From positions 1 to 64,000 of IMG/VR virus record IMGVR_UViG_3300042868_008818: a DNA stretch of 64,000 bases; one strand, 5' to 3'. Origin of the DNA: an uncultured virus (IMG/VR IMGVR_UViG_3300042868_008818) (Duplodnaviria; Heunggongvirae; Uroviricota; Caudoviricetes). The stretch's first letter is position 1; each line of letters opens with the position of its first letter. The position numbers were made by a program, and so were the translations under genes. The notes under the pieces are model-generated. The model made no database searches and had not been told where the DNA came from. It worked only from the letters and a program-made list of their open reading frames with translations. Of the stretch, positions 1 to 56,990 are shown one piece after another.

Positions 1-1817
1 AGGTCTCTTTCACCTGATTCAATTTTATTAATAACCTCATCTCTACGATAAGCGGTATTATCTACAATAAACTCAAGCATTTCTTCATCAGTAATATCTT
101 CAGGTTTAACTGGTTCAGGAATACAATTATGCTCTCTATCAAATAAATCAACATCATCAAAATAAAAACCTGTTTCACCAACTATTTGTTCAAACTTTGG
201 GATCATGGTATCTTCATACCATTCCTCTATTATGCTCGTCACAAAGTTTTTTCTTGCGTTAAAAATTCTCATTATCTTTTCTACTAATGTTTTTGTTATC
301 AGTAATGAACCACTATAAAATTTACCGTCTTCGTAATAGTATATTGCGGTAATAACTTCTTTACCGTTAACACACCAATCCTCACGAAGATTACCATAGT
401 TACGAGATTTTTTACCTATTTCTCTATTACCACCCTCAATATAATCATCAAGAAATAATGTGATAACTTTTCTAAGACTATCTGTAGATTTAAGGTATTT
501 TTGTCTTTTGTCTTCTTCCCTCAATACTTTTATTATGTTATTTTTATATTCATTGGATTCCCACATTTCTCGTTTATTAATATTCTCCTGTTCTTTAATA
601 TTAAAAATAAAACGTATCTTCCATTTACCAATTATTCTATCTGCAATACTATACATAAAATCATCATAATCAATCCCTCCCCAAATACCATTAAGCGTCA
701 GATTTACATCAACTTCAAACATAGGAATTCTACTTATACCTTTTTTTCTTTCTATATTTACAATAGTTATTTTATCTATAGTATCAACAACATCACAACC
801 ATCAAACGACAACCAACCAGGGAAAGTATCCGCATCAGGCACTTCACAAATATTTTTAATTTCATCAAGTGTTTGATCAACGATGTTTTGGAATGTCCCA
901 ATCATTGTTTTTTTATTTAACTTATTATCATTTGATTCTCTCATCAAATCTTTTCCTGTTCCTTCATGTTTTAATGTTATTGCATTTACAGGTATGTTTT
1001 CAAATGTCACTATATGTTTTGATCTTGATTCATAGTGTTTATCTTTGTACCACTTAACATCAGGTATTATTTCAGTATCAATTTCCCATACATCGTCATC
1101 GTATGTGGAATCAAAAGACGCTCTTTTATTTGTTGAGTTGGTTGCAAAGATTGCTGGTACACATTTTTCACCGTAACCTGCATATATTTTATAACATTCT
1201 CCGGCTCTTACTTTTAAACCTTCATTTGTTATTTTATCTCTAACCTTTGGATTAGATTTATGTATAACAATTTTGTTTGGTATTATTTCTTTACCCGCAG
1301 GGCTATATTCATCTTCCCTTAATATTCTTCTTATGGATTCCTGTAGTTTTGTTTTTGTTTTTAGTTTTTTAACTATATTATCTATCTGTGGATTTTTATT
1401 ATCTATAATATCATTAACAACATTAAATGCTTCTCTTGCTGCAAGTTTTCCTTTTTCTTTGTCTTCATAATTAAACACAACATTATACACACCTTTTTGT
1501 CCTTTAACTCCTCTTGTTCTTCCCCATCCTGTATCCATTCCAGCAAGTGTTTGTAATTCTAATGCTACGTGTTCTATAATGTGTCCCATCCAAGTTCCTT
1601 CTTTAATTCTTTTAAAAAATCCTCCTGGTTTTCCTTCTGAACATCTATGACTTTGTAATGACGGTAAATGTTCTTTTATTCTTTCGTAAAATCCTTCTAT
1701 TTTATTTGATGGTTTGTTTTCATAAACACCCAAATCTAAAACCATATGTATAAGTTTATCTTTGGACTCGCTCCATTTGTTTTTTCCATCGATAATATTG
1801 ATTGATTTTATTTTCAT
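1..1817 (-). CDS. Multi-module protein (>605 aa, runs off left edge): cyanophycin synthetase N-domain-like + ART-like + two unknown modules
   Basis: Hand translation, absent from ORF track. ATG at 1817 overlaps the upstream stop (TAATG); open to position 1. Starts MKIKSINIIDGKNKWS...LPSLQSHRCSEGKPGGFFKRIKEGTWMGHIIEHVALELQTLAGMDTGWGRTR; internal joints LQESIRRILRE, LMRES, NIIKVLREE. Confidence 0.9.
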   Translation of the reverse strand, partial: MKIKSINIIDGKNKWSESKDKLIHMVLDLGVYENKPSNKIEGFYERIKEHLPSLQSHRCSEGKPGGFFKRIKEGTWMGHIIEHVALELQTLAGMDTGWGRTRGVKGQKGVYNVVFNYEDKEKGKLAAREAFNVVNDIIDNKNPQIDNIVKKLKTKTKLQESIRRILREDEYSPAGKEIIPNKIVIHKSNPKVRDKITNEGLKVRAGECYKIYAGYGEKCVPAIFATNSTNKRASFDSTYDDDVWEIDTEIIPDVKWYKDKHYESRSKHIVTFENIPVNAITLKHEGTGKDLMRESNDNKLNKKTMIGTFQNIVDQTLDEIKNICEVPDADTFPGWLSFDGCDVVDTIDKITIVNIERKKGISRIPMFEVDVNLTLNGIWGGIDYDDFMYSIADRIIGKWKIRFIFNIKEQENINKREMWESNEYKNNIIKVLREEDKRQKYLKSTDSLRKVITLFLDDYIEGGNREIGKKSRNYGNLREDWCVNGKEVITAIYYYEDGKFYSGSLLITKTLVEKIMRIFNARKNFVTSIIEEWYEDTMIPKFEQIVGETGFYFDDVDLFDREHNCIPEPVKPEDITDEEMLEFIVDNTAYRRDEVINKIESGERD

Positions 1818-2914
1818 TATCTTTGTATTCTCCATAAATCTTTTATCATTTTTTCATACATATCGGAAACGTAGTTTACAAAATCAATTTCTTCTTGTTC
1901 TGGTAATTCATCCCAACCAATTCTATATTCTATCCACATAATCCATTCCACCGCCTTTAAAACAACTTCATATTTAAACTGTTCAAAACTTTCCGCCTCA
2001 TAAAATACTTCTTGTGCATATCTTTTAATTAGTTCTTGAACTTTATCCAAATCTATCCTCCTTTGGAAAAATGCCGATTCATTGATAGTTCCCACAGTTA
2101 ATTGTGATCTTAATGTTTGTTCATTTAAATGAAAGTATTTACCTTCTATGTCAATGTCTCTAACTTCAAGACCTGAGTTATCCTCGAACCATCTTTTAAA
2201 GACAGGAATCCATTTATTTCCAAATAATAATGTTAACCCATTGTTTACCCATTTTGTAATCACTAAAGCATATAAATAATCATACCCATCCCACTCACCA
2301 AGATAAGCATAAGCAAAGAGATCGTTTATCTCAAAGTCATAACTCCCATGTTCATTTACATCATTCCTATAAAAATCATGTAATTCTGGACCCCAATTAT
2401 AATCAGGATGATATTCTTCTTTTAAATATTGATATATAAATTCATTAAGATCTTCTCCATCAAAATCTAATATCTTTATTAATCTTTCTACACTACCAAC
2501 CGCCTTTGCCGTTTTTTTAATTCCTATACTACGAATCATTTGGAACAAATTATCTTGTATTGTTTCTTCCCTCAGTATTTTTATTACTGATTCATTTATA
2601 CCATATTTTGTTTTTATTAGGTCGTATCTTTTTTCTATTCTTTCATCATAAAATTTTCTAAGAACATAAAAAACATCATCATACCATTGTAACTCATTTG
2701 GGAGGGTATATACCAATATATTGTGTATTCCGTCTATGGTCATTGATAATATGGTATTTCTAAATGTAGCCAATGGTACAATACTACCACTTTCTTTAAG
2801 ATTTATTGAACACTTATTTGAAATCGTATCTAAACACTCGGTAAATTCCATTTCTAAATACTCAGGACTTACTCTACGTAAAATTAGATTTAATGTTTTA
2901 TCGTTTATGCTCAT
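1817..2914 (-). CDS. Multi-module hypothetical protein with internal (I/L)xE joints
   Basis: Track ORF 1817..2932; start moved to MSIND, 4 nt after TATTTAT. Internal INESVIKILREE and INESAFFQRRID. Confidence 0.8.
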   Translation of the reverse strand: MSINDKTLNLILRRVSPEYLEMEFTECLDTISNKCSINLKESGSIVPLATFRNTILSMTIDGIHNILVYTLPNELQWYDDVFYVLRKFYDERIEKRYDLIKTKYGINESVIKILREETIQDNLFQMIRSIGIKKTAKAVGSVERLIKILDFDGEDLNEFIYQYLKEEYHPDYNWGPELHDFYRNDVNEHGSYDFEINDLFAYAYLGEWDGYDYLYALVITKWVNNGLTLLFGNKWIPVFKRWFEDNSGLEVRDIDIEGKYFHLNEQTLRSQLTVGTINESAFFQRRIDLDKVQELIKRYAQEVFYEAESFEQFKYEVVLKAVEWIMWIEYRIGWDELPEQEEIDFVNYVSDMYEKMIKDLWRIQR

Positions 2915-2918
2915 ATTA

Positions 2919-2925
2919 ATAAATA
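2919..2925 (-). promoter_or_regulatory. TATTTAT putative phage (late-type) promoter, representative of about 20 copies
   Basis: Coding strand GTATTTATTAAT-ATG; same motif recurs before many genes. Confidence 0.65.
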
Positions 2926-2973
2926 CGACCATAAGATAAAACTGACTATTTTATAATTAACATAGTTGTTGTA

Positions 2974-3267
2974 TTAATAAAAATCATAATTTGTTTTATA
3001 GTACTCTACAAACTCTGATGTAATTTTTATTTTTTTTATATTAATGTTAAGTGTTGAGGATAGAAAACTTTTAATCTTGAATATGTTTGGTGTTTTAGAT
3101 ATTCTACCGAAAATACCATCTACAGGACCTAAAGTTATGACTAATTTTATGACGTATTGATCATCCCCAAAATCTTTAGGTTCTTTTGAAACATTTATTT
3201 GCACATCTTCCATTTCTTGGTAAACATGCGTATTAAGTAATTGTTTTATTAGTTTGGATTTGTCCAT
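2974..3267 (-). CDS. Hypothetical protein
   Basis: Start moved to MDKSK, 4 nt after TATATTTG. Confidence 0.7.
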   Translation of the reverse strand: MDKSKLIKQLLNTHVYQEMEDVQINVSKEPKDFGDDQYVIKLVITLGPVDGIFGRISKTPNIFKIKSFLSSTLNINIKKIKITSEFVEYYKTNYDFY

Positions 3268-3312
3268 ACAACAAATATACAAAATATTTTTTAATTTAAT
3301 AATAATATAAAT

Positions 3313-3341
3313 AAAAAACCCCATCCATGTGATGAGGTTTA
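3313..3341. terminator. Intrinsic terminator-like hairpin
   Basis: aaaaaaccccatc...gatgaggttt stem with A/T tails. Confidence 0.6.
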
Positions 3342-3476
3342 TTTTATTTTGATACCTGTAATTTTTTTGAATCTTCGTTTTAATTTCATTCTCAAATACC
3401 TATCAACAACTTTACTGATGTTCTTTTCTTTTTCTAACAACCTCATCTTTAGATCGTCCTCGGTTTTTATATACAT
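3339..3476 (-). CDS. Small basic hypothetical protein (45 aa)
   Basis: Hand translation MYIKTEDDLKMRLLEKEKNISKVVDRYLRMKLKRRFKKITGIKIK; fills the gap between gene and terminator. Confidence 0.6.
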   Translation of the reverse strand: MYIKTEDDLKMRLLEKEKNISKVVDRYLRMKLKRRFKKITGIKIK

Positions 3477-3477
3477 A

Positions 3478-3711
3478 TTAAATTAATTTAAAATTTTCTG
3501 TAGTTAACAATTTAACTATTCGTTTCTCAGATACTGAGTTAATTGCTGGTCTTGTTGCAACTTCAGTTATCCCCTTGGAAAATACTACTTGAAACTTCTC
3601 TGTGTTTTTAATGTAAAACCTTGATACATGACAGTATTCTCCTTTGTCATTAACAAAATTACCAAAAGATTTGGCCATTAATAGTTGTCCGAGTGTGATT
3701 TTATTTTCCAT
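3478..3711 (-). CDS. Hypothetical protein
   Basis: Start MENKI, 4 nt after TATCTTTG. Confidence 0.7.
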   Translation of the reverse strand: MENKITLGQLLMAKSFGNFVNDKGEYCHVSRFYIKNTEKFQVVFSKGITEVATRPAINSVSEKRIVKLLTTENFKLI

Positions 3712-3715
3712 ACCA

Positions 3716-3723
3716 CAAAGATA
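3716..3723 (-). promoter_or_regulatory. Bacteroidota-type -7 promoter element TAnnTTTG, representative of about 14 copies
   Basis: TATCTTTG-TGGT-ATG; matches the established Bacteroidota housekeeping promoter consensus. Confidence 0.75.
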
Positions 3724-3752
3724 TGTGAAATTTATTAATCCCACAAATAAAT

Positions 3753-4235
3753 TTAGTTATCTATTAAACCAAATGAATATGATTCATCTGACTCTTCTAT
3801 CTGTTCTGAATCTAACACTACCGTTGTATTTCTACCGGCGAATGCTGGTTCGTAAACCGCAACTGATTTAAATGGAAAAAATTTGTTCATTTCATCACGT
3901 AAAGTACTTATAATCCAAGATTCTAAATTACTTGCAAAAAGATTTGTTTTAAAATATATTTTAATACGTACTTTATCTGGTCTATTTCTATTAACCTCAA
4001 GAAAAGATATTTCAACATTATCAAATTCCACAAAATTAATAAAGTTTTTAACTAACATTTCTTGGGTTTCAATGTCGGTAACATCCAAATTTAATATTTT
4101 TACAACATTTTTAAATCCTCCAACAACACTAGATGCAAAATGAATACCTTTGGTTTTAAGTAAATCCCTAACACTTTTTTGAATGTCGGTATCTTCTTCC
4201 CTTAATATTTTTAATATTTTTTGATTGTCAAACAT
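3753..4235 (-). CDS. Leader-bearing hypothetical protein
   Basis: MFDNQKILKILREE; TATTTAT 5 nt upstream; shares the VGG..N..KIL helical module with 6937..7437 and 1817..2914. Confidence 0.8.
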   Translation of the reverse strand: MFDNQKILKILREEDTDIQKSVRDLLKTKGIHFASSVVGGFKNVVKILNLDVTDIETQEMLVKNFINFVEFDNVEISFLEVNRNRPDKVRIKIYFKTNLFASNLESWIISTLRDEMNKFFPFKSVAVYEPAFAGRNTTVVLDSEQIEESDESYSFGLIDN

Positions 4236-4290
4236 ATTAAATAAATACATCGTAATAATAAAAATAAACCCAACTTTTTGGTTAGGTTTA

Positions 4291-5315: not shown

Positions 5316-6524
5316 TTATATTTTTCCAAAATTAATGTAACTTGAGATATCATCTGCTTGGTCTCTTATTTTGTTAAATTCATATTGTAGTTCGTTAACC
5401 TCGTAAGTTATGTTTTTTAATTTTTTATCTAAATTTTCTTTTATTTTTAATAAATTATAGTACTTATCTTTTATCCCGTTAAATTCTAAAAATTGATCAA
5501 AACTTTTTGGTTCTATTTTCATTACTCTATAATAATTCATAACAATATCATACAATTCTAAAGTTTCTTTTACAAATCTTACAGATTTTGTTGCATTATA
5601 ACTTCTTTTTGCGGTGTTCAACACTTTGTATTTTTCTTTAAGTAAATTATCTAACTCTTCATACCTAGACTTATTAAATTCTTGTTCCTTTTTATACTGT
5701 TGATCATAATATTTTAAATAAAGATTATATGTATAATCTCTAATAAGGTTAATGAATACTCCTAAAAGATCTCTACCAATATATTTTCTAATAGTTTCAG
5801 GTTTTACTTCATCATCAATTGCATTCCAAAAAGCAAAATCACCTTTTTTACTATTTGCCAAAAAATTCTCTTTGTACCTCCAATCAGTACTTGTTGGGGG
5901 GTCGTACTGAATTGCAATTTTAAAGTAGTTTTTAGATTTTTTCTTTTCTGGTATTGGTTCTCTTAATTTATCTATAACAAAGAAAAATAAATTTGAGTCA
6001 CTATAGTTATCAAAATAATTGTTTGTGTTTGATGCAATACACCATTTAGTATTTGATCCATATTTACAGGAAGCTTCTTTATTTTTTGGTCTTACCAAAA
6101 CATACTTATCGTCCTCATATAATTTTTCAACACCGGATAATTCAAGTTCTTTTTTTGTGATTTTTGTTATTGCCTCTTCATATTTTTGTACAAATTCCTC
6201 ATAACTATATTGGTAAATGTCTTTTTTTTCAAATTTATGTTGATTTTTATCAAAATAATTAACCATTAACAATAAATCATTAATTTCTATACCTAAATTT
6301 TTTTGATCTCTTTCAATGAATACTTTTGACATCCAATTAAAATATTTTTTGGTTGCGGATGGGTCTCCATCATAAAAGTCTTCTATAACCCCATTGTATT
6401 CGTCATTAAATTTATTTTCATAATATTTAAGTAAATCGTCAAGTTTACTTTCAGATAAAATGGTCTTATTTGACAAGAAATTTGATAAACCATTAATTCT
6501 TTTTATTTCTTCTCTTAAATTCAT
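5316..6524 (-). CDS. Leader-bearing protein with ASCxYGxxTKWC domain and C-terminal coiled coil
   Basis: MNLREEIKRINGL...ILSE; RPKNKEASCKYGSNTKWCI; paralogous to 33933..34973 and 53234..55168. Confidence 0.8.
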   Translation of the reverse strand: MNLREEIKRINGLSNFLSNKTILSESKLDDLLKYYENKFNDEYNGVIEDFYDGDPSATKKYFNWMSKVFIERDQKNLGIEINDLLLMVNYFDKNQHKFEKKDIYQYSYEEFVQKYEEAITKITKKELELSGVEKLYEDDKYVLVRPKNKEASCKYGSNTKWCIASNTNNYFDNYSDSNLFFFVIDKLREPIPEKKKSKNYFKIAIQYDPPTSTDWRYKENFLANSKKGDFAFWNAIDDEVKPETIRKYIGRDLLGVFINLIRDYTYNLYLKYYDQQYKKEQEFNKSRYEELDNLLKEKYKVLNTAKRSYNATKSVRFVKETLELYDIVMNYYRVMKIEPKSFDQFLEFNGIKDKYYNLLKIKENLDKKLKNITYEVNELQYEFNKIRDQADDISSYINFGKI

Positions 6525-6556: not shown

Positions 6557-6934
6557 TTAATAATCATCTTCTTCTTCGTCCCAAGTGATAGGCTCATCAT
6601 CGTCTTCAATAGTCCCTAAATTACTATCTGATTCAACCCAAACTTCAAAAGGTGTTGATAGTCCGCAATTTTCAACATACTGAATAAAAAATTCTTCCAA
6701 ATATGAATCATCTTTAAAAATTCTAGATATTTGGTCATAGATTTCTTTTTGTACCGATAATGATTTATCTGGTTTAACTATTAAAAATATAACAGTGTTT
6801 CCCGGGGTTGCAAGATATTCCATTCCATAACGTTTGTTTTCCCAAGGTCTTAAATCCAACCTTGAGAGGAATAGTTTTGCGATCTCTTGTTTATCTATAG
6901 TTTCTTTTAATATATGTCTTATAATATCTTTCAT
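6557..6934 (-). CDS. Leader-bearing hypothetical protein
   Basis: MKDIIRHILKE. Confidence 0.8.
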   Translation of the reverse strand: MKDIIRHILKETIDKQEIAKLFLSRLDLRPWENKRYGMEYLATPGNTVIFLIVKPDKSLSVQKEIYDQISRIFKDDSYLEEFFIQYVENCGLSTPFEVWVESDSNLGTIEDDDEPITWDEEEDDY

Positions 6935-6936
6935 TT

Positions 6937-7437
6937 TTACATGTTTGTTACATCGGCCGTTAAACCATTAAAAAGGTGATACTTTATCTCTTTTAAATAT
7001 AATCTTAGATACTCATTAACAACGTCCTGTACTTCGTGTTTTATTTCATAATATAGTGGTTCATTTTCAAACAATTCCTCACCTAAAAGATTATAAGTTT
7101 CATTTGTAGTCATTATTAATTCTACCTCACCTTCAATTATTTCAAACATTATATCTAAATAATCATCTCTCATATCATGAACAATTTTGTGTATTTCAAA
7201 AACAAAATCATAACCACCTACTTGTAATGGTAATTCTAAATTACGTGTTGATATACTTTTTCCCACAAATTTTTCTCTAATTAAGGCAACAGGAGTAGTG
7301 TCAAGTATTTTTGCCAAATTATATATTCCACCAACTTTTCTACATACCATAAGAAGACCTTCATTTTCTATCATGTTATGGAACATTTTTTTTGGGTTAT
7401 ATTCTTCTTTTAAAATATTTCTTATTAGATTTTTCAT
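6937..7437 (-). CDS. Leader-bearing hypothetical protein
   Basis: MKNLIRNILKEE. Confidence 0.8.
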   Translation of the reverse strand: MKNLIRNILKEEYNPKKMFHNMIENEGLLMVCRKVGGIYNLAKILDTTPVALIREKFVGKSISTRNLELPLQVGGYDFVFEIHKIVHDMRDDYLDIMFEIIEGEVELIMTTNETYNLLGEELFENEPLYYEIKHEVQDVVNEYLRLYLKEIKYHLFNGLTADVTNM

Positions 7438-22077: not shown

Positions 22078-23373
22078 CTAATTAGAAAGTGGTGCTTTAA
22101 TATGTGGGTGTGATTGGTAGTTACTTAATTGGATGTCATCTTCTAATAAACATTTACAAAAATTATCATCTTTAAATGATTCAAATACCTTAACGGCATC
22201 TATAGATCCTACACCGCACTCACCTGATTCAGTTGGCCAAAACTCAGTGTTGATGTTTAGGATTGGTAGTGTATATGGTTCTCTTGTTCGGGTTGGTACA
22301 TTCCATTGATCAATTTCAGAATGTGATAATGTGCTACTGTCTCCACCATTATAGATTTGATTAAACATTTCTTGAGTAACCATTTCTCTTCTTTCATCTA
22401 AATCTAGTTTTCTGCCAATCTGTTCTTTTGCTTGTTCAATATGATTCAAATACAAATGTGTATCACCCAAATTACCAATCAATTCATCAGGAACCATATT
22501 AACTGACTTTGCAATGATTTCTAGTAGTAATCCGTAAGACGCAATATTGAATGGCAAACCTAAAAAAGTGTCGCCGGATCTTTGCAACCACATTAAAGAG
22601 ATTGCTCTGGTTGGGATATTAAATTTGTCACATTCTTTATGAACCTCATTATCTAAATCTATACTAACATTACTTTTTATAAAATCAAACAATTCATTTG
22701 AATCCAATAAATTAATTTGTTTAGTGTTTTTATACGTGATTCTTTCACTAGCACTCAACTCTCTTGTATAAACTTGAAATCCATAATGACAGGGTGGTAG
22801 AGTCATTTTGTCAATTTCTGCAACATTCCATGCGTTAACCATTAATCGTCTTGAATCTGGATTTGTTTTAAGGTCGTGGATTAGGTTCGCAATTTGGTCA
22901 TTCTTAGGGACTTCTTTATAATGGGTTACAGAACCATGATTCCAACCAGAAGGGACTTTTTTATAACCACCCCAACTTCTCCATTGCTTACCGTAGATTA
23001 GTCCCATATCAAACATTGAATCGTGGAAAGAATGATTACCGTCTTTTACTTTCTGTTTAACCTCTTCAAGTGTATATGGTTCAGAACAAGTTGTTTTATA
23101 CTTTTTGTGCCAGTCCCCATCCCAAATAGAACAATTATTTTCCCATAAAAACCTAATATCTGAATCACCCCTTAAAAACCATAACAACTCTGTTACCATT
23201 GTCTTCCAAGCCATCTTCTTTGTTGTAAGTAAAGGAAATCCTTCTGACATCTTGTGTCTAATCTGTCTTCCAAATACAGATAGTGTTCCTGTACCAGTAC
23301 GATCCATTTTTGTAACCCCATTATCTAAAATGTCCTGGAGTAAATCTGTGTATTGTTTATCTAAATTATTCAT
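22078..23373 (-). CDS. thyA: Thymidylate synthase with insertions
   Basis: DRTGTGT, ELLWFLRG, YGKQWR, PDSRR, LPPCH, QRSGD, PFNIASY, GDTHLYLNH. Confidence 0.97.
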   Translation of the reverse strand: MNNLDKQYTDLLQDILDNGVTKMDRTGTGTLSVFGRQIRHKMSEGFPLLTTKKMAWKTMVTELLWFLRGDSDIRFLWENNCSIWDGDWHKKYKTTCSEPYTLEEVKQKVKDGNHSFHDSMFDMGLIYGKQWRSWGGYKKVPSGWNHGSVTHYKEVPKNDQIANLIHDLKTNPDSRRLMVNAWNVAEIDKMTLPPCHYGFQVYTRELSASERITYKNTKQINLLDSNELFDFIKSNVSIDLDNEVHKECDKFNIPTRAISLMWLQRSGDTFLGLPFNIASYGLLLEIIAKSVNMVPDELIGNLGDTHLYLNHIEQAKEQIGRKLDLDERREMVTQEMFNQIYNGGDSSTLSHSEIDQWNVPTRTREPYTLPILNINTEFWPTESGECGVGSIDAVKVFESFKDDNFCKCLLEDDIQLSNYQSHPHIKAPLSN

Positions 23374-24754: not shown

Positions 24755-26023
24755 TTAAGAAAATATTTTCTTAGATTGTTTTTGTCTGTGGAATTTAATG
24801 GCAAATCTGTGTACTTCTTCTTGTATTTTACCAAAAAGTGTAAAGTTCTTATGATCCTTTATATTAAATTCCGTACCGTCTATCTTATGAATAACTGAAG
24901 ACTTATGATTAGAGTCCTTAGATATTGAAATTAAGTCTATCTTATCAGTTAAATTAAGTTTTTCAAATACTCTTTTTGCAACACCTAATTGTCCTTTACC
25001 TCCATCAATTAAAATAAGATCAGGTAGTTTTTGTTTTTCATCAATAAGTCTTTTTAATCTTCTTTGTAAGACCTCATCAAAAGATGCGTAGTCATCAATA
25101 CCAACAAAACTTTTAATATTGTACTTACGATACTCAGATTTTAATGGTACCCCATCATCAAACCTAACTGAAGCCGCAACATTAGAATCTCCTTGGTTAT
25201 GTGAATTATCAAAAGCCTCAATAACCTGTGGTATATTTTTCAGATTTAAAATATCCTTTATTTCAAAGATATTTTTTTTGCGTTTCTGAATTCTTATTAC
25301 CTCTAACTTATTATCAATTGTTTCCAATACTGTAAGTTTTGATAATATAGTCTGAGCTTTTTCATATTCCGTATTATTTGAATAATGTTTCATTAATTTT
25401 TTTATCTTTGACTTTAGTCCATCCAAATCAAGAGAAAGAACTTTTTTAACGTCACGAACTATTTCATTATAGTAAAACTTTTTAATACCATTTACGCAAG
25501 GGGCATTACATCTACCAAGATGAAATTCTAAACAATTTTTAAATTTTTCTTTTAGAATATTTTCTTCTGTAAGATCGTAAGAACAACTACGAAGTTCAAA
25601 GATATCATGAATAAGATCATATACTTCACGACACAACATTCCTGAAGTAAAATCAAGACTTACTCTATCGTCTTGTTTATCTCTTACTATTTCAAGTTTA
25701 GGAAATTCTTCGTCCGTAAAACATAAGGACCATTTTCTGGTCTTATCATCTTTACCCTTGATATTAAACTTTGGTTTGTATAGTTTAATTAATTCTTCTT
25801 CAAGGATTATTGCCTCTTGTTCTGATGAGGTAATTTTAAACTCAACATCGTGAATGTTCTCAACAAGGGTTTTTGTTTTACCAGTTTGATTTTTTTGGAA
25901 ATATGAAGAGACTCTTTTTGGTAAGAACTTTGACATACCAACATAAATTATTTGCCCTTTGTTGTTTTTAAACAAATAGCAACCTGAATTTTTTGGTATG
26001 TCCTTAAGTCTTTCTAAAATCAT
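24755..26023 (-). CDS. uvrC: UvrC excinuclease (GIY-YIG + Cys-rich + RNase H-like; no C-terminal HhH)
   Basis: GCYLFKN...IIYVG, KPKFN, C..PC, EAFDNSH, DDYAS, PDLILIDGGKGQL, EVHRFAI. Start MILER, 4 nt after TATCTTTG. Confidence 0.93.
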   Translation of the reverse strand: MILERLKDIPKNSGCYLFKNNKGQIIYVGMSKFLPKRVSSYFQKNQTGKTKTLVENIHDVEFKITSSEQEAIILEEELIKLYKPKFNIKGKDDKTRKWSLCFTDEEFPKLEIVRDKQDDRVSLDFTSGMLCREVYDLIHDIFELRSCSYDLTEENILKEKFKNCLEFHLGRCNAPCVNGIKKFYYNEIVRDVKKVLSLDLDGLKSKIKKLMKHYSNNTEYEKAQTILSKLTVLETIDNKLEVIRIQKRKKNIFEIKDILNLKNIPQVIEAFDNSHNQGDSNVAASVRFDDGVPLKSEYRKYNIKSFVGIDDYASFDEVLQRRLKRLIDEKQKLPDLILIDGGKGQLGVAKRVFEKLNLTDKIDLISISKDSNHKSSVIHKIDGTEFNIKDHKNFTLFGKIQEEVHRFAIKFHRQKQSKKIFS

Positions 26024-26044
26024 ATCACAAAGATACAATTTTTT

Positions 26045-28089: not shown

Positions 28090-28928
28090 CTTTCATTATT
28101 TTATCTGTAAACATATTATTTTCAGGATCATGTTTCCCTAAGTTATATGTTGTAAATGTACCATTTTCAAAGTATATTCTCAACATTAGATAACCTAATT
28201 CAGAAACATAAATTTTATCAACCGTACCTAATCCTTTAATTGTTTCTATTAGAACCGGATCTTTCATATTATTCAACAATTATTTTTACTTTTTTGGTTG
28301 GTGCAAATGATACTCCCCAATCTTTTTTAACTTCGTCTTTACTTTCTTCTTCATCTATTTGACAAAACCATTGATTTTGTTCGATTATTACCATTTCTTG
28401 ATCTGTTATGTCAAGTTGTTCAGGTAAAGCGACAATTTTAAATGCCTTTGTTAGTGATAATTTTGAATCGATAATTAAGTTCAAGACTTGTTCGTTTTCA
28501 CATTTAACCACACTTGGGAATTCTCCTCCTACGGTAACAACCGCATTGTCCCCTACTTTTATTGGATCAGCAGAAACTAAATAAGTTTTTTGATCTATGT
28601 TGAATAATCTTACTGTTTTTTTCATTTATTTTTTATTATATACGTATTTATGGTTGTAGTTTCCGCATTGATTGCAAGATGTTCCTTCATCGGATTCCTC
28701 AACATTATATTCATATTCATCAGACAAATTAACAATAATTTCGGCAATCACAGTCCAATCATTCATCCCCATTCCACCTTTTAATTCGTGTAGTCTTGAG
28801 ATTAACTCATCTTGTATGTCCTCAACTACCTTTGGATCTCTATTGTCGTATTCGTGTATGAACAAAGATTCTCCATCAATTTCTACGTCAGGACCAAAAC
28901 AATTTTCCTTTAAAATAATTTCTTTCAT
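28073..28928 (-). CDS. Three small hypothetical genes (28073-28279, 28269-28625, 28626-28928)
   Basis: ORF track; coupled. Confidence 0.65.
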
Positions 28929-29305
28929 TTTTTAAAGTTTAATAAAATACCAACTTCTTGGTTTTTTGTTTCCGTTATCGGTCCCCATTCGCCTTTATAG
29001 GTAATACCTCTTACTGGTTTATTATCAATCCAAACATATTCTTCATCCTCTAAACATCTTGGTTTATCTGTAATCAAGTCATGAAACTTGAATCCGTGTC
29101 TCCATAACCAAGCAAGAGTGGTCCCTTTATCTTTATACTCTCTAGCGGTAAAAAAAACAATTTTGTTTCCTTCATCGTAAAGTTTATTTATCTCTTCCTT
29201 GGATCCTTCGTATGGTTTTGCAATTGAGTATAGATCGCTATCCTCGTTTTTTATGTCATCACATACCGTTCCGTCAATATCAATCAAATAAACTCTTTTT
29301 TTCAT
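28925..29305 (-). CDS. HAD-superfamily phosphatase
   Basis: LIDIDGT, FTAR, KP, WIDN. Confidence 0.85.
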   Translation of the reverse strand: MKKRVYLIDIDGTVCDDIKNEDSDLYSIAKPYEGSKEEINKLYDEGNKIVFFTAREYKDKGTTLAWLWRHGFKFHDLITDKPRCLEDEEYVWIDNKPVRGITYKGEWGPITETKNQEVGILLNFKK

Positions 29306-30120: not shown

Positions 30121-30699
30121 TCATCCTAAGTAGTTTAAAATCTTTTCTTTAACTCCTGATTGTTTAATACCTTCATTTGATTTTGGTGTTAATACAAAAT
30201 TATCAATTGCCCATTCATCCTTCCAAGGCTCCCCAATCTTACCCATATTTAAATCATCTATAGAAACCCAATGAGTTATTTCAGGGTGATCGTGAAGATA
30301 TTGTTTAATTTCAATAGTTCGTAATTGTTCTGACTCCCATCGTGGTGACCACATAAATAAATTACCATGAACGGTACAATGTTGTATGTTAGGTGTCAAA
30401 GCAATTGGTCGTTTGATAATACCCTGACTTTCGTAGTAATCTCCAAGTTCTTCAAGAGTTGCGTGTAATTTCCAATCTGAACTTACAACAATTTCAGCTC
30501 CCGTTTCTTCAAGTATCTCATTAAGTACCTTAATAGCCTTTGTGTCAAAATCATCAAAACGATATTCAACAGGTGAGTCTTTTTTTTCTTTACTACCATC
30601 AGGGTTTTCACTACGGTATTTTGCCCATTTCTTAGTTCGTCCACCCCAATTGTTGGAGAGACATATAACTCCGTCGTTGTCTAAAAATATAACCTTCAT
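30121..30699 (-). CDS. HAD domain protein (RNA-repair 'Swiss army knife' type)
   Basis: KVIFLDNDGV, IVVSSDW, WVSIDD. Confidence 0.8.
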   Translation of the reverse strand: MKVIFLDNDGVICLSNNWGGRTKKWAKYRSENPDGSKEKKDSPVEYRFDDFDTKAIKVLNEILEETGAEIVVSSDWKLHATLEELGDYYESQGIIKRPIALTPNIQHCTVHGNLFMWSPRWESEQLRTIEIKQYLHDHPEITHWVSIDDLNMGKIGEPWKDEWAIDNFVLTPKSNEGIKQSGVKEKILNYLG

Positions 30700-35444: not shown

Positions 35445-35474
35445 AAAAAAAGGTGACTCTTAGTGAGAGTCACC
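35445..35474 (-). terminator. Intrinsic terminator overlapping the ligase stop codon
   Basis: ggtgactct...agagtcacc with T tail on the minus strand. Confidence 0.7.
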
Positions 35475-36587
35475 AACATTATTTTTTTCACCGTATATTA
35501 AGTAGTCGGGATTTATCACTTTGGATACTTTTCTACGATCACCAGTTACTGATTTAACTACTATACCTTCGTGTGGTACTTTGGTACCTTCTATGTTATT
35601 ATTGAACACAAACTTATCTTGTTCCTCCTTATTCCAATTACCTTGGTATAATAATTCTACTTGTGGTAATTGTAGGCAATCAAAGTGTACAGTTTCATTT
35701 ATGTATGGTTGGTATTCACCATCAACTTCAACATCAAACCCAACAAACTTAACATCAGTTAAACCGTATTCATAGTTTTTTTGTATACCGGCACCGTATA
35801 TCTCACCATATATAACAACACCTTCAGTTAACTTATCTGGATAGTAAGTATCTTTTACGTGATCCCATAATTTTTGACGTATGTTGTATTTGTTTGATAT
35901 GTTTTCCCATACGTTAGTATCATAAAACCCTTGTGAGTCTGAACCTTTTTCAACGTTATGGGAACCATAAACATACTCAAATGCCACCCACTCATTTCCA
36001 AAAAACATTTTAACTCGGTCCCACAAAGAAAGTGTTTTCTTTCTAACTATCCCGTAACGAGCATTGGTTCCGTGTAACTTACGAGTTATAACAACCTCAT
36101 CTTCCTCACTGAACATATCAGGTACGTTCTTTTGATTAGGAAACTTGTAGTAAACTTTGAAGTTAGGATTTTGGTGGTATTTCACTTTACGTCCACCTAC
36201 ACTTAACTGTATAGTTTTTACAGGTGGTTCATACTTATGTATTCCCATTTTTTCCATTAAGTCCATCCCCACATAATATACATCCCCAAAACCTGGTATG
36301 TATTTGTTAGGTATTAAAAGACATTCAGAATAAACCCCGCGAAGTTTTACAGTCCTAACTCTTTGACCTTTACGTAAATAATTAGTAACCCCCAATTTAT
36401 CTGATAATTCTTTTGGTATTACCGCATCAGTAGTTGCAACAACTACAAGATCATCAACCTTATATTCACCTTTTTTAGTTATGGCATTCCAACCACCAAC
36501 AGTTACTAATTCTATGTTGTCGGCACCTGGTATTTCAGATACTGAACCTATTACCCCTACGTATGATACACTATTTTGATTTTCCAT
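35460..36587 (-). CDS. RNA ligase, DRB0094/Rnl2-like family
   Basis: N-terminal IPGADNIE...RTVKLRGVYSE; KLHGTN motif I, YGEIYG, FD, EGIVVK, KVI. Confidence 0.9.
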   Translation of the reverse strand: MENQNSVSYVGVIGSVSEIPGADNIELVTVGGWNAITKKGEYKVDDLVVVATTDAVIPKELSDKLGVTNYLRKGQRVRTVKLRGVYSECLLIPNKYIPGFGDVYYVGMDLMEKMGIHKYEPPVKTIQLSVGGRKVKYHQNPNFKVYYKFPNQKNVPDMFSEEDEVVITRKLHGTNARYGIVRKKTLSLWDRVKMFFGNEWVAFEYVYGSHNVEKGSDSQGFYDTNVWENISNKYNIRQKLWDHVKDTYYPDKLTEGVVIYGEIYGAGIQKNYEYGLTDVKFVGFDVEVDGEYQPYINETVHFDCLQLPQVELLYQGNWNKEEQDKFVFNNNIEGTKVPHEGIVVKSVTGDRRKVSKVINPDYLIYGEKNNVGDSH

Positions 36588-39851: not shown

Positions 39852-40505
39852 TTAACCCACAACACCAACTAATCCATCCAAGTGATGATCTCCTGACATA
39901 TCAGAACCAACTGTTCTTTTATCCATTATTTTAATGATATCAGAAATACTATATGGATCCATCCCATTACCATCAACACCAACGTCCATTCTTCTACCAT
40001 TACCAAATTTTCTATTTTCCGGTAAGTGAACGTGCCCATGAAGGTGTATTACACCTTTGTTTAGTCCATTCCAACTTTGTAGTGGGTAGTGACATAACAC
40101 AAAATCTTTACCTTCAATGTTCACTTCCAAATAATGTTGAACACTTAAAAACCTTTTTTGAACAAAATCATAGTTTCTGTTAATATGGTGATCGTGATTC
40201 CCTAATATTAAGTGAATGTTGTGACAAACCAACCTTTCAAGAAAGATTCCAATATTATCAAATCCACCAAATGAAACATCACCCAACATAATTAGAGTGT
40301 CTTCCTGACCCACAAAATGATTTATACCATCAATCAAACGTTCGTTCATCTGTTCAATAGTTTGAAAGTCACGAGTAGAATCCACCGGTACTTCACCATC
40401 TTGTGTTCTCCAATTGGTAGTTCCTCTTACAATATTTTTGTGACCGTAGTGTGTGTCACTTGTAACCCACACTTTTCCTGTTGTCAATATTTTTTTAAAA
40501 CTCAT
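39852..40505 (-). CDS. Calcineurin-like phosphoesterase
   Basis: SDTHYGH, LGD, GNHD, CHYP, HGHVH, DVGVD. Confidence 0.9.
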   Translation of the reverse strand: MSFKKILTTGKVWVTSDTHYGHKNIVRGTTNWRTQDGEVPVDSTRDFQTIEQMNERLIDGINHFVGQEDTLIMLGDVSFGGFDNIGIFLERLVCHNIHLILGNHDHHINRNYDFVQKRFLSVQHYLEVNIEGKDFVLCHYPLQSWNGLNKGVIHLHGHVHLPENRKFGNGRRMDVGVDGNGMDPYSISDIIKIMDKRTVGSDMSGDHHLDGLVGVVG

Positions 40506-40891
40506 AATTTTATATTAAAACGATTACGCATTTGTTCTAACTTATCTTCAGGTACTCCATGTTGGTTTACTCCCCCATGCCTGTTTTCAACTACCACTGA
40601 AAAAACAGTATACCCATATTCTTTTGCCAATTCAAAGTATACTTCAAGTTCCCACTCTTGTGTTGAGGTATTGGAAACCACAATCTTTGGGTACTCCAAT
40701 ATCATGTCTGTTTTAACCATTCCTTGGCACCATTGGTGAGCATCTTTGATTTTAGTAAAATCAAAATTATATTCCCCATTCTCATTAATGAAGAACATAT
40801 CCGCTTCATAATGTTGTCCCCCCAAAGTTTTTGCAAATGTTGATTTTCCTGATCCCGGAATTCCTCTAACAATATATAATACTTTTTCCAT
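40502..40891 (-). CDS. P-loop kinase (polynucleotide-kinase-like, AAA_33)
   Basis: RGIPGSGKST, EADMFF, VSNT, HGVP. Confidence 0.85.
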   Translation of the reverse strand: MEKVLYIVRGIPGSGKSTFAKTLGGQHYEADMFFINENGEYNFDFTKIKDAHQWCQGMVKTDMILEYPKIVVSNTSTQEWELEVYFELAKEYGYTVFSVVVENRHGGVNQHGVPEDKLEQMRNRFNIKL

Positions 40892-40971: not shown

Positions 40972-41475
40972 TTATCTATTTCCGTCAAAGAAAAACATTT
41001 TTTGACGACAAAATAATTGATATCTTTGTTTTTTTCCGTCAGTCATTACCATTATTGTTTGGTCATAATCTACAACACCATTTTGGTCCATATTTTCTGT
41101 TGAAGTACCACCCTTTTGTAATAGCTGTTCAGCGGTAAAACCAAAACTGTCACCAGGTTTTAAGATAAAAGGGGTTTGTCTATCAATAATTTTCATGTTG
41201 TCATTCATAGGCATAATTTTCGTTATAGTGAGTGGTGCAGTTCCAGCGTTTCTAAGACCCCTGAATTTAAATTGAATTTTTTTTCCAAATTCAACTTCAC
41301 CATCTGGGTTACGCACAACCATTGTTCCTACTAAAGGCCCCTTACTCATTTCAGCCTGCTGAGCTCCCTGTGTTGAAGGATTTGGCATACCTATAGGTTC
41401 TTCACCTTGTTCATTAATAACTCGTCTAACGATACGAGCTAAATCTGACTCAGTTAATCTTACTATTCTTTTCAT
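40972..41475 (-). CDS. Leader-bearing Ig-like (DUF1573-like) protein
   Basis: MKRIVRLTESDLARIVRRVINE; F..RNAGTAPLTI...ILKPGDS. Confidence 0.6.
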   Translation of the reverse strand: MKRIVRLTESDLARIVRRVINEQGEEPIGMPNPSTQGAQQAEMSKGPLVGTMVVRNPDGEVEFGKKIQFKFRGLRNAGTAPLTITKIMPMNDNMKIIDRQTPFILKPGDSFGFTAEQLLQKGGTSTENMDQNGVVDYDQTIMVMTDGKKQRYQLFCRQKMFFFDGNR

Positions 41476-44489: not shown

Positions 44490-45341
44490 TTATGAAAATG
44501 GGATTTCTTTTATTTGACCTAATGTTTTAAAATATTCAACTCTTGTTTTGGCAATCTCAGTATAATTTGGCGATAACTCAATACCCAACCATCTACGCCC
44601 CAATATCTCTGCAGCTACCAAACTTGTTCCTGACCCAGCAAATGGGTCTAATACTACATCGTTTTTGTAGGACAATATTTTAATCGCCTTTGTTGGGATG
44701 TCCATTGAGAAGGTCGCCTTGGTGAGTGATTTAGTATCTGCAAAGTAATTCCACTGACCAAAAACAAGTTCCATAAATTCTTTCTTATCTTGTTCTTCAT
44801 ATACCACTTTATTTTTTATGGTTCCATCCTCCTGAATAATTTCAGTTGGTGTTCCCTTCCACTGTGGTTCTCCTTTAACCTTTTTTATGTGTAATTTTTT
44901 ATACGCCAAAATAACACATTCTTTTGGATTATATATATAAGGACTTGACGGTGACATCCAAGATCCCCACGCAGTTGTTTTACTACGATGAGGTGATTGT
45001 TCTTCAAGGTCAACAATACCAAAGAACCCAAACCCTATCTCTTTCATTATTTGATACATCTCAGAAACAAAAAAGATTCTTCCTCCTTTCTTTTGTCTGT
45101 TAATTTCATACGGTATGTTTAACGCAATTCTACCATCATCTTTTAACACATTATAGGCTTCAGTTAACCAATTCCTTGCAAAGACCAAGTATTCTTGAAA
45201 CTCCACGTCATCATCATGAGTATCATAAGCAATACCAACACCGTATGGTGGTGAGGTAACAATTAAATCAACACAACCTTCAGGTAAGGTTTTCATCACT
45301 TCAACACAATCTCCAGTTATTATTTTTCCTGTTTCTATCAT
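44490..45341 (-). CDS. DNA methyltransferase, beta class (N4-C/N6-A)
   Basis: VTSPPY, VLDPFAGSGTS, GIELS. Confidence 0.92.
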   Translation of the reverse strand: MIETGKIITGDCVEVMKTLPEGCVDLIVTSPPYGVGIAYDTHDDDVEFQEYLVFARNWLTEAYNVLKDDGRIALNIPYEINRQKKGGRIFFVSEMYQIMKEIGFGFFGIVDLEEQSPHRSKTTAWGSWMSPSSPYIYNPKECVILAYKKLHIKKVKGEPQWKGTPTEIIQEDGTIKNKVVYEEQDKKEFMELVFGQWNYFADTKSLTKATFSMDIPTKAIKILSYKNDVVLDPFAGSGTSLVAAEILGRRWLGIELSPNYTEIAKTRVEYFKTLGQIKEIPFS

Positions 45342-47294: not shown

Positions 47295-48800
47295 TTAGTC
47301 TATTCTCATTACAACATAATCAGTACCATTGATGTTAACTGTATCATAAGTACCATCATAACCATTTAAATCACCATAATCCCCATTTCTAACTAAATCA
47401 TCTAATAACTCTCTTGTATCAATAAAATCGAAAATATCCCCACCCATATTATCTAACCATCCGGCTGGATCATAACCTATCTCATTTTCTAAGTAATTAT
47501 CAACCGCCTCTTCAATACTACTTTCGTCAGGATCCCCATCAGGACTTTCTTTTATATCATCTATCTCTGAGTCTATTTCACTAATCCTATTTTCACGATC
47601 GGTTTCATGTTCTTCGGTGTCCTCATCGTCATATAATTGTCTTGGTGGAACAACTTGACCCTCCTTATATAATATCGAATTATTTCCTTCTCTTCTATAT
47701 TGTAATTCATTATCCTCAGAATCATAAAAATCAAATGTTCCGTCTTTTTCTTTTGATGGGTACATAATTGGAGCCCTTACTCCTTCGTTTTCGTAAACCC
47801 ATTTTTCCATTTCTAGTAACCAAATTTCTTCTTCTTGAGAATTACTTAATTCTTTTTCAACCCCGTAACTATCAGGTTCATCTCTTATCCATTCTTCTAC
47901 AGAATCCCTATAATATTCTTTTATTTTATCTTCATCAACATAACTTGATAGAGTTTCTTTAGAAAAATAATTATCAAGGTCATCAATTTGTTGTTCATAA
48001 TAATCCTCCAATGAATCATCGGCTTCCCTATATTCACCAACCGCAAATCTCATTTGTGTTGACAATGACTCAAACTCGGCCAAATTATAATGGGAACCTG
48101 CCGGATATAGATCATATACATCAACTCTATCTGATAATAAATCATCTCTTTCTTCTTCAAGTTCTGATTGTTTGTCTGTAATCTCATCAAATTTTTCACT
48201 ATAGTTTTCGTCACCAGAATCTAAATTTTCTTGTTCTTCCTCAAGTGATTGTATTTCTTCTTCTATTTCTCTTACCCTTTCTTTATCATCATCATCAAGA
48301 GATTGTAAATGACCGTCATTTACCGCATATTGAAAAACCGCATTGGCTCTTGGACTTTCGTAACCAGTATTTTCTATATCCCAATCACCATCTTCTCTTT
48401 TTTCATTTTGTTCATTATATTTGGCTTGTAGTTGTCTTCTTTCAATAACCTTTTCGTAAGGGGTTTGCCAAAAAGTTTTATGTCCCGTAACCTTAACATC
48501 ATCCAATGATTTAACATTTGTGTATGAAACATTCAAACCTCCTTCAACCTCAATGTCCCCAATTTTATAAATCTTTTGTTTACCATCAACATTACTAAGA
48601 TTAAGGTCACCTTTAACAACAAGTTTTTTACCCCTAAATTTTGGTAAATAAGGTATTGCATGAGCCATAAAACCAACTTGTCTTAAATATTGCATATATT
48701 GTTCAGGTGAAATATAAACTTTTTCAATTTCATCTTCTTTAATTAATTTAAGAATAATACTAACAAGTTTATTTTCAGTAAGTCTTATTTTCTTTTTCAT
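47295..48800 (-). CDS. Leader-bearing highly acidic protein
   Basis: MKKKIRLTENKLVSIILKLIKE; V.G.LN.S repeats; coiled coils; TATTTAT 6 nt upstream. Confidence 0.8.
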   Translation of the reverse strand: MKKKIRLTENKLVSIILKLIKEDEIEKVYISPEQYMQYLRQVGFMAHAIPYLPKFRGKKLVVKGDLNLSNVDGKQKIYKIGDIEVEGGLNVSYTNVKSLDDVKVTGHKTFWQTPYEKVIERRQLQAKYNEQNEKREDGDWDIENTGYESPRANAVFQYAVNDGHLQSLDDDDKERVREIEEEIQSLEEEQENLDSGDENYSEKFDEITDKQSELEEERDDLLSDRVDVYDLYPAGSHYNLAEFESLSTQMRFAVGEYREADDSLEDYYEQQIDDLDNYFSKETLSSYVDEDKIKEYYRDSVEEWIRDEPDSYGVEKELSNSQEEEIWLLEMEKWVYENEGVRAPIMYPSKEKDGTFDFYDSEDNELQYRREGNNSILYKEGQVVPPRQLYDDEDTEEHETDRENRISEIDSEIDDIKESPDGDPDESSIEEAVDNYLENEIGYDPAGWLDNMGGDIFDFIDTRELLDDLVRNGDYGDLNGYDGTYDTVNINGTDYVVMRID

Positions 48801-48881
48801 ATAACAATAAATATGAAACATTTACAAATAAGACAATAGACTGATATTTATGTTTAAATAAACATTAAAAAACAATTTGTT

Positions 48882-50975: not shown

Positions 50976-51000
50976 AAAAACCACCATTAGGTGGTTTTTT
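50976..51000. terminator. Bidirectional terminator
   Basis: aaaaaccacc-atta-ggtggttttt between convergent genes. Confidence 0.8.
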
Positions 51001-51287
51001 TATTTCTTAAAAAATTCTTTTATTATTTTCACCCCATCTTCAATTTCGTCAAAATCTCTTTCAGGAGCAAATAATTTAGTTTTTGGTCTTTTTGAGTTTG
51101 GGTCCTCTATTGTCATAAAAGATGGTACGTATTCATTCTTTGTTATTTCTGTAAAAATATCATACTCCTCTTTATAATCGTCAATATCCCTATCAAAGTA
51201 TTTAATATTTTCTTTATCCAACATATTTTTTAAGTCGTGACAATAAGAACAACTTTTCATGGTATATAGTACAACTATCTTATCCAT
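51000..51287 (-). CDS. Glutaredoxin-like protein
   Basis: LYTMKSCSYC...VP. Confidence 0.8.
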   Translation of the reverse strand: MDKIVVLYTMKSCSYCHDLKNMLDKENIKYFDRDIDDYKEEYDIFTEITKNEYVPSFMTIEDPNSKRPKTKLFAPERDFDEIEDGVKIIKEFFKK

Positions 51288-51290
51288 ATT

Positions 51291-51431
51291 TTATTTATTT
51301 AAGTAATTTATACTATCATTATAATAGTTTTTATTTTGGTTCGACCCATAAGCATCGCAATTAGCGGATTTTGTTGTCTTACATGAAAATAAAACAAAGG
51401 TTAACAAAACTGATAAAATTATTCTATACAT
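51291..51431 (-). CDS. Small lipoprotein (46 aa)
   Basis: Hand translation MYRIILSVLLTFVLFSCKTTKSANCDAYGS... Confidence 0.65.
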   Translation of the reverse strand: MYRIILSVLLTFVLFSCKTTKSANCDAYGSNQNKNYYNDSINYLNK

Positions 51432-51432
51432 A

Positions 51433-51747
51433 TTAATTTAATAAAAGATTTTTAACTAAACTTTTTATGTTGTTTTCAGCCATAACACCAACTCGTGTAT
51501 CAACAACATTTCCCTCATTGAAAATTTTTACAGTAGGGATGCTTCTAATCCCTAGAGTTGAACTAATCTCTTTATTAAGATCCACATTCATCGTATACAT
51601 TTCAACTTCTGTTTCATTTTCCGTTGATACTTTTTCAAAAACTGGTTTCATCATCTTACATGGTCCACACCATTCCGCCCAAAACTCAACAATAACTTTT
51701 TTACCTGAGTTTATTTTTTTTGTTAGTTCATCACCACTAATTTCCAT
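51433..51747 (-). CDS. trxA: Thioredoxin
   Basis: FWAEWCGPCK, IRSIPT. Confidence 0.93.
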   Translation of the reverse strand: MEISGDELTKKINSGKKVIVEFWAEWCGPCKMMKPVFEKVSTENETEVEMYTMNVDLNKEISSTLGIRSIPTVKIFNEGNVVDTRVGVMAENNIKSLVKNLLLN

Positions 51748-56831: not shown

Positions 56832-56990
56832 ATGGAAAAGAAAGAAGCAACTAAAGTCACAGGATGTCGTAAATGTAATAAAGGACAAGAAAATTTACAA
56901 ATGTTTTTAGTAATCTCAGGTGGATTATTATTTTCTTTGGCGATTTACGGAGCCGTTAGATTGGTTCAAGACATCATATCTTGGTTTTAA
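56832..56990 (+). CDS. Small membrane protein (52 aa) with CxxC
   Basis: Hand translation MEKKEATKVTGCRKCNK...LVISGGLLFSLAIYGAV. Confidence 0.6.
   Translation: MEKKEATKVTGCRKCNKGQENLQMFLVISGGLLFSLAIYGAVRLVQDIISWF

Follow-up and report, generated by a model that had tools for sequence, protein, structure and literature searches.

A free-standing CphA1-type N domain in a leader-jointed protein of an uncultured phage

The N domain of the cyanophycin synthetase CphA1 is a small metal-dependent endopeptidase (C-H-H site, probably zinc) that cuts cyanophycin chains. Why should a phage encode this domain without the synthetase to which it belongs? The question is raised by the IMG/VR virus record IMGVR_UViG_3300042868_008818, of which bases 1–64,000 were analysed (hereafter the window; the full record has 76,219 bases). 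A first-pass annotation of this DNA had read such a domain, with an intact hydrolytic site, in a phage protein at 1400–1817. Comparison with PF18921 and with the structures 7lg5 and 7txv_A, together with a residue alignment, agrees that a CphA1 N domain with the full catalytic and polymer-binding residue set has been captured in a phage protein. The domain does lie where it was placed, but those coordinates cover residues 1–139 only, and the whole domain occupies 1347–1817. Its sequence places the protein in a family of leader-jointed modules from T4-type jumbo phages, and the way in which the domain is probably deployed changes accordingly. We hypothesize, at a probability of about one half, that the gene encodes a phage-adapted, free-standing CphA1 N domain that would act as an endo-cyanophycinase and is perhaps packed into the capsid.

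The N domain and its active site

Features of the N-domain gene, in window coordinates:
3–1835, minus strand: open reading frame (ORF) with the N domain, 611 codons, open at the contig end
1347–1817, minus strand: stand-alone CphA1-type N domain, residues 1–157 counted from M7 (PF18921, 7lg5, AlphaFold/Foldseek)
1569–1643, minus strand: metal/catalytic motif Cx19HxxEH (C59...H79, E82, H83), translated CSEGKPGGFFKRIKEGTWMGHIIEH
1761–1787, minus strand: remodelled loop, residues 11–19 (GKNKWSESK), whose counterpart in CphA1 is the hydrophobic M-domain-contact loop

As the window begins at base 1 of the record, the ORF is cut by the contig end. Its true start is probably M7 (base 1817), since homologues align from this residue and its ATG shares bases with the stop codon of the gene upstream (TAATG). 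Residues are numbered from M7 throughout.

The profile search and the structure prediction that had been proposed as checks both bear out the assignment. Pfam PF18921 (Cyanophycin_syn) matches residues 31–144 with an E-value of 1.7e-44 and 150.9 bits (cut-off 27), and it exceeds the cut-off in all 11 phage-type relatives scanned as well. In the PDB, phmmer finds 7lg5, the CphA1 structure SuCphA1, with an E-value of 2e-37. Residues 2–103 align to it without a gap, so that counting from M7 reproduces the SuCphA1 numbering (C59, H79, E82, H83, H57, R70, R100). An AlphaFold (AF2) model of the domain, built on ten phage-type sequences, reaches a pLDDT of 90.6 and a pTM of 0.87, and Foldseek aligns it to 7txv_A with a TMq of 0.88 and an rmsd of 1.3 Å over 155 columns. 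The phage copy is 46–47% identical to the SuCphA1 N domain (PDB 7LG5/7TXV; Sharon et al. 2022, PMC9262961) and has the same fold. The two share Cx19HxxEH, the second-shell residues H57, F67 and E87, and the polymer-contact residues S60, R70 and Y110.

Unlike in SuCphA1, neither a G nor an M domain comes after the phage copy. The equivalog model TIGR02068, which describes full-length CphA1 with G and M domains, gives 180 bits against a cut-off of 850 and aligns at model positions 1–153 of 862 only; the window protein is thus outside that class. None of the ATP-grasp or Mur-ligase Pfam families matches the remaining 450 residues of the window ORF. The earlier observation that these domains do not follow the N domain is thereby upheld.

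In the SuCphA1 N domain, C59, H79 and H83 are described as the metal ligands and E82 as the base, with H83 supported by H57, F67 and E87; the side chains S60, R70, E90 and Y110 contact the polymer (PMC9262961). The motif Cx19HxxEH is invariant in 10/10 phage-type proteins, 7/7 viral loci and 80/80 bacterial loci. The window and all seven viral loci retain twelve residues (H57, C59, S60, F67, R70, H79, E82, H83, E87, R100, R102 and Y111), and the 10 aligned phage-type proteins show no variation at them. The sole listed SuCphA1 site residue that differs in the window is E90, here a threonine, as it also is in 76 of the 80 bacterial relatives. Across 15 phage-type sequences, down to 59–70% identity, E82 and the three metal ligands do not vary.

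The loop at residues 11–19 sets phage and bacterial copies apart. In the bacterial enzyme it contacts the M domain, and it is hydrophobic in all 80 bacterial relatives; in all 15 phage-type copies aligned it is charged, at positions 14 and 17. Bacterial CphA loci have P at position 12 (79/80), Y, I, F or L at position 14 (80/80) and I or V at position 17 (75/80); the window has K, K and E at these positions. The phage type as a whole (window, seven viral loci and ten metagenome proteins) has K at 12, K, R, E or D at 14, and E, D, G or K at 17. When 15 phage-type sequences are set against 80 bacterial ones, the entire loop is seen to be changed, from GPNYWSIRR-like to GKNKWSESK. Further changes of the phage clade are E30G, F98W, a one-residue insertion at 105, A136D and Y143P, and 62 of 84 bacterially conserved positions are retained.

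An isolated SuCphA1 N domain has been made soluble by Y14S and I17T, both in the hydrophobic M-contact loop, and the solubilised domain confers primer independence in trans (PMC9262961). Like this engineered, "extruded" domain, the phage copy is free and polar at positions 14 and 17. In contrast to it, the phage version is natural and also alters P12, R18 and R19. The phage N domain hence looks adapted to standing alone.

The chain of modules and its leader-like joints

Parts of the chain behind the N domain, and the gene upstream:
1311–1346, minus strand: joint 1, LQESIRRILRED, the sequence found as N-terminal leader of neighbouring genes; ends L-x-E
921–1304, minus strand: module B1, with an ADP-ribosyltransferase/Tpt1-like fold according to AF2 and Foldseek
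543–920, minus strand: module B2, linked to B1 by a decayed joint (DLMRES); no Pfam family
510–542, minus strand: joint 2, NNIIKVLREED; the module behind it has a gene of its own in relatives, starting MRDLIKKILKEED
3–509, minus strand: module C, no Pfam family; the contig ends about 20 residues before the stop
1817–2932, minus strand: upstream gene of the same leader-jointed family, with an internal joint INESVIKILREE at 2564–2599; its stop overlaps the N-domain start

From its start the chain reads N domain, LQESIRRILRED, B1, decayed joint, B2, NNIIKVLREED and C; the leader-like joint that had been reported behind the N domain is present at 1311–1346. In its phage coding and its fusion to unrelated modules via such a joint, the N domain differs from that of SuCphA1. 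The same parts are found elsewhere in other combinations. Related viral contigs encode B1-B2 and C separately, and C opens with the joint sequence as its leader; separate C genes of 200 aa occur in the contigs L002 and L010, the L010 copy being 83% identical. In L002, B1-B2 is fused directly to the domain that forms the C-terminal part of the upstream gene of the window, and in the protein P0005 the B2 module comes directly after a canonical joint. At least nine different modules are found downstream of the N domain and its joint, and three close N-domain relatives carry a leader ahead of the N domain as well. One architecture of 383 aa has been assembled independently at least five times; hence, leader-jointed fusions in general are not assembly accidents.

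Module B1 also exists alone, as leader-tagged proteins of about 134 aa that begin with MNLQESIRRILREE or with a second leader type right before the domain. It has no Pfam match. Its AF2 model (pLDDT 82.5) finds the NAD-binding lobe of Tpt1/KptA as the best Foldseek match (TMq 0.50–0.55, E 3e-4 to 2e-3), while PARPs and other ADP-ribosyltransferases rank next with weak scores. We take the ADP-ribosyltransferase-like character of B1 as a lead at the level of the predicted fold. Candidates for module B from the protein atlas, with scores under 0.9 or a TM under 0.5 throughout, were retained as leads only.

The conserved peptide of leaders and joints, LQESIRRILRE, ends at the level of sequence in the T4 head-protease motif. 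Counted over the 93 B1 homologues with an anchor (of 120 listed), 76 begin with a leader, and in 82 or more the motif [LIVM]-x-E precedes the B1 domain by one to three residues, in five different upstream contexts; fusions that have no canonical joint still have ...ELNEN or ...GINEN before B1. A strict definition of the leader yields 57 stretches on about 40 viral contigs, several of them 257–308 kb long. Three leader types share an amphipathic pattern and a terminal (L/I)-x-E.

Further leader-bearing genes close to the N-domain gene:
3753–4250, minus strand: gene with ...KILKILREED near its N-terminus; in the protein P0013 its domain stands behind an N domain and joint
5316–6524, minus strand: gene with the second leader type (MNLREEIKRI...)
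6557–7437, minus strand: two more leader-bearing genes (MKDIIRHILKE..., MKNLIRNILKEE...)

The third leader type, whose sequence (...RLTESDLARIVRRVINE...) lies some 15 residues into the protein, occurs in the window at 40972–41475 and 47295–48821 (minus strand), and also on four ORFs of the related genome G007 and one of G001.

Proteins of similar layout are known from T4, in which diverse internal proteins carry a capsid-targeting sequence and gp21 cleaves after Glu, and in which Alt is a packaged ADP-ribosyltransferase (PMC3012670, PMC9026906). As with T4 IPI-III and Alt, diverse small proteins here share nothing but a short N-terminal peptide with a terminal head-protease motif (PMC3012670, PMC9026906). 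The likeness extends to the relatives of the window phage, which are T4-type with an S77 protease and a gp23 capsid, and to the ART-like (ADP-ribosyltransferase-like) enzyme among the tagged modules, as Alt in T4. However, the leader of the window family differs in sequence from that of T4 and also sits inside chains as a joint. We know of no such multi-module chains in T4.

In G007, leader genes and head genes occur together. Its N-domain gene (contig L132) is 83% identical to that of the window, has the joint and lies inside an array of ten leader genes. In L132 (200–8400), ten consecutive genes open with MNLQE.IRRI.RE and are packed as ...TAAT ATG. The array genes share the bases before the ATG (...TTAAT ATG AAC CTA CAA GAA). 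G007 also encodes a Peptidase_S77 prohead protease and the Gp23 capsid protein, as do G001, G002, G005 and G010; a search for a T4-type terminase, which among these relatives covered G001 and G002, found it in both. In the capsid proteins of G007 and G001, I-N-E stands just ahead of the conserved mature start. A T4-type late promoter (TATAAATA) was found upstream of none of 10 leader genes.

At the DNA level the joint is a repeat of about 36 bases, whose copies within the window differ at synonymous sites while the peptide is kept. In contigs of four runs, depth rises 5–20 fold at 1301–1400, and different sequences meet the joint, 7–12 of them at 1312 and 3–4 at 1345–1347. Among the contigs listed from these four runs (Logan) none spans the joint; they are short and stop at the 36-base repeat. 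Since contigs break there, those of the four runs neither support nor refute the link between N domain and B1. The closest N-domain variant, P0013 (94%), goes on into a different module. We consider it rather unlikely, though by no means negligible, that the N-B1 link of the window was created by the assembler at the repeat; this doubt does not extend to the N domain with its joint, which is real. A contig of run X7 links 1346 straight to 2101, a natural variant that has neither the N domain nor the end of the upstream gene.

Relatives, origin and genomic setting

A HMMER search over 1.84 billion representatives returned 1,414 matches. The best ten (59–93% identity, 179–456 aa) all have the phage-type loop and all lack the synthetase part, and ordinary CphA appears from about 50% identity downwards. 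Members of the N-domain cluster come from metagenome sources only and are labelled "hypothetical protein" or unnamed. Seven viral contigs carry the N domain. Among 15 candidates with seemingly other architectures that were scanned, six also match the ATP-grasp part and are therefore CphA fragments; the remaining nine have the N domain alone.

Phage-type copies are 47–59% identical to any bacterial copy found. A tree including Bacteroidota CphA, as suggested in the first-pass annotation, was computed from 110 rows. It unites the 14 phage-type rows in one clade (SH-aLRT 99) that joins among Bacteroidota, with a support of only 60 and no resolved sister group. No donor family was named, given this attachment support and the very long branches of the representative CphA rows. 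The nearest labelled relatives of the phage N domain are, by sequence, Bacteroidota CphA1: the best 80 of 599 confirmed genome loci comprise 77 from Bacteroidota, one from Balneolota and two from Pseudomonadota metagenome-assembled genomes (MAGs). Among five phage genes dN/dS is 0.08–0.30 (Nei-Gojobori; 8 of 10 pairs, dS being saturated in the other two), and the phage N domains are under purifying selection. A chimeric assembly with a bacterial cphA, which had been named as a possible objection, is excluded by the 47–59% identity to bacteria, the single clade, its own loop changes and this selection.

A more distant lineage, that of G005 (G+C 36.7%), has the N domain followed by a low-complexity tail of 85 residues and no joint, and a T4-type portal gene lies 2.3 kb from the N-domain gene (L022, 5001–5738 and 8049–9773). 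The tail is Gly/Ser-rich. A short motif in its last 14 residues presumably resembles the leader of T4 internal proteins. A shared C-terminal tag in this joint-free lineage was considered and rejected, as the tail motif occurs only once in G005.

Neither the N domain nor B1 has a match in 50,697 GenBank phage records, and no phage-encoded cyanophycin enzyme was found described in the accessible part of the literature, which included PMC10206079 and PMC11265339. The earlier remark that no description of such a protein in phages was known is in line with this.

The record has a completeness of 26% (CheckV), which at 76,219 bases implies a genome near 290 kb. The window has a G+C content of about 29% and nearly all its genes on the minus strand; it contains no tRNA genes. 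Its DNA is found in lake and other freshwater metagenomes. Positions 1–4000 gave no megablast matches to GenBank phages, and a PHROGs search with the first eleven proteins of the leader region returned nothing except one unnamed family. The capsid protein of G007 has a Microcystis phage (43%) and Flavobacterium phages (42%) as its nearest cultured relatives.

Several other genes of the window are recorded here as side observations (minus strand; for 51000–51747 the region is given):
22078–23373: thymidylate synthase of 431 aa, with a Pfam match in two stretches that suggests a large insertion
24755–26038: UvrC-like phage protein with GIY-YIG and UvrC RNase H domains
28925–29305, 30121–30699, 35460–36587 and 40502–40891: possible RNA-repair set, with a PNKP-like HAD phosphatase, HAD_SAK_2, an RNA ligase with OB fold and an AAA_33 kinase as its members
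44490–45341 and 55212–56057: two DNA methyltransferases, one of N6_N4 type and one of Dam-like D12 type
51000–51747 (region): thioredoxin and glutaredoxin genes
56987–57910: full-length DnaJ with J domain, zinc-finger domain and C-terminal domain

Possible function and alternative explanations

The data suggest that the phage may tap or block the nitrogen reserve of its host. Infection would take place in a cyanophycin-storing cell, most likely one of the freshwater Bacteroidota, where the N domain would cut cyanophycin internally, so that long or insoluble chains would become short, soluble pieces rich in new ends. The cyanophycinases CphB/CphE (Peptidase_S51) share this presumed substrate; they are unrelated to the N domain and belong to a serine-peptidase family that releases dipeptides. 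Cyanophycinases of this kind work from chain ends. The cyanophycinase of the host could then release Asp-Arg faster, and the nitrogen set free would feed a phage genome of about 290 kb; alternatively, the infected cell would be prevented from putting Arg and Asp into storage. A survey of 86 Bacteroidota genomes with cphA1 found a cyanophycinase in every one (PMC10206079).

How the enzyme might reach its substrate is suggested by the leaders. It may be made as the first bead of a leader-jointed chain that is loaded into the prohead as T4 internal proteins are, cut at the joints and delivered together with the DNA; the ART-like module B1 would travel with it. This route we put forward tentatively, at somewhat less than even odds. 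A bolder form is doubtful and, in our estimate, distinctly unlikely: that the free N domain is a virion-delivered enzyme which opens the host cyanophycin store from the first minute, and that leader and joint form a recombination-prone platform for swapping cargo.

A number of points weigh against the proposal of a phage-adapted endo-cyanophycinase. The M-domain residues S603 and E607 of CphA1 also touch the polymer (PMC9262961), and these contacts are absent from the phage protein, while F98W, the insertion at 105 and further changes of the clade may point to a substrate that has shifted. A cyanophycinase (PF03575) is found in none of five N-domain-bearing phage contigs, all of them fragments, so that full breakdown of cyanophycin would depend on the host. 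In CphA1, moreover, N-domain activity raises the cyanophycin yield about 2-fold (PMC9262961), and the net effect in an infected cell is therefore not obvious. The tree resolves no donor family, and the Bacteroidota link leans on a genome-locus scan that is biased, since it used a single pattern (GTW[ML]GH...) which leaves out cyanobacterial-type sequences. The 76-kb, 26%-complete record of the window contains no terminase, protease or capsid gene of its own and shares only 4–7 ORFs with G001, G005 and G007, and the T4-type nature of the window phage hence rests on its relatives. The link between N domain and B1 in the window, finally, is present in no other assembly.

The alternative that survives best keeps the enzyme and gives up its packaging. 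It holds that the N domain is an ordinary cytoplasmic auxiliary product, that leader and joint are a 5' recombination cassette or an N-terminal helix with another role, and that the chains stay uncut. The behaviour of the joint as a DNA repeat, with its depth spike and many alternative flanks, speaks for it, as do the shared bases before the ATG and the tight packing of the array genes. Contigs tend to stop inside leader arrays, the N domain of the G005 lineage does without any joint, and the arrays lie at least 40 kb from the head genes in G007 and G001. However, the joint copies of the window vary synonymously with the peptide kept, three leader types show one amphipathic pattern with a terminal (L/I)-x-E, and fusions without the canonical joint still put L-N-E or I-N-E before B1. 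We regard this explanation as unlikely, but as one to be taken seriously.

An improbable explanation is that fold and metal site were kept while the substrate became a host protein or another polymer. Such a neofunctionalised peptidase would account for the clade-specific changes near the cleft (F98W and the insertion at 105), for the lost M-domain contacts S603 and E607, and for the company of effector-like modules such as the ART-like B1. Yet the polymer-contact residues S60, R70 and Y110/111 are invariant, T90 is the Bacteroidota state too, the 62 of 84 bacterially conserved positions are kept, and the isolated SuCphA1 N domain works without an M domain (PMC9262961).

It is very improbable that the domain is a non-catalytic binder or decoy which holds cyanophycin or the host CphA1 and blocks synthesis or granule use. 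The N domain does anchor the polymer during synthesis as well (PMC9262961), which would suit such a role. Cx19HxxEH is present in 83% of CphA1 sequences, whereas about 17% have lost it (PMC9262961), so that loss of the motif is tolerated where catalysis is unneeded; in the phage type, by contrast, E82 and the three metal ligands are invariant over the 15 sequences, at the low dN/dS given above. That the N domain is itself the protease cutting the Arg/Glu-rich joints is hardly credible. Of 16 phage-type proteins, 12 do have the N domain immediately next to a joint or leader, but an N domain is missing from the surroundings of most leader-tagged genes and chains, and the relatives encode a head protease of T4 type with a motif that matches the joints. 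The joint, moreover, is a normal alpha-peptide, whereas the N-domain cleft binds a branched polymer, cyanophycin (PMC9262961).

If the proposal of a phage-adapted endo-cyanophycinase is true, the gene would represent an auxiliary gene of a new kind, with a polymer in which freshwater Bacteroidota store nitrogen as its target. Among the leader-jointed module families of giant T4-type phages it would be an additional enzyme, and a well-defined one, and it would provide a concrete, assayable cargo with which the packaging and cutting of such chains may be tested. For CphA1 it would amount to a natural experiment, in which evolution excised the cryptic third active site of the synthetase and rendered it soluble through changes at the loop positions that its discoverers engineered. 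Such an excised N domain would argue that endo-cyanophycinase activity is useful alone.

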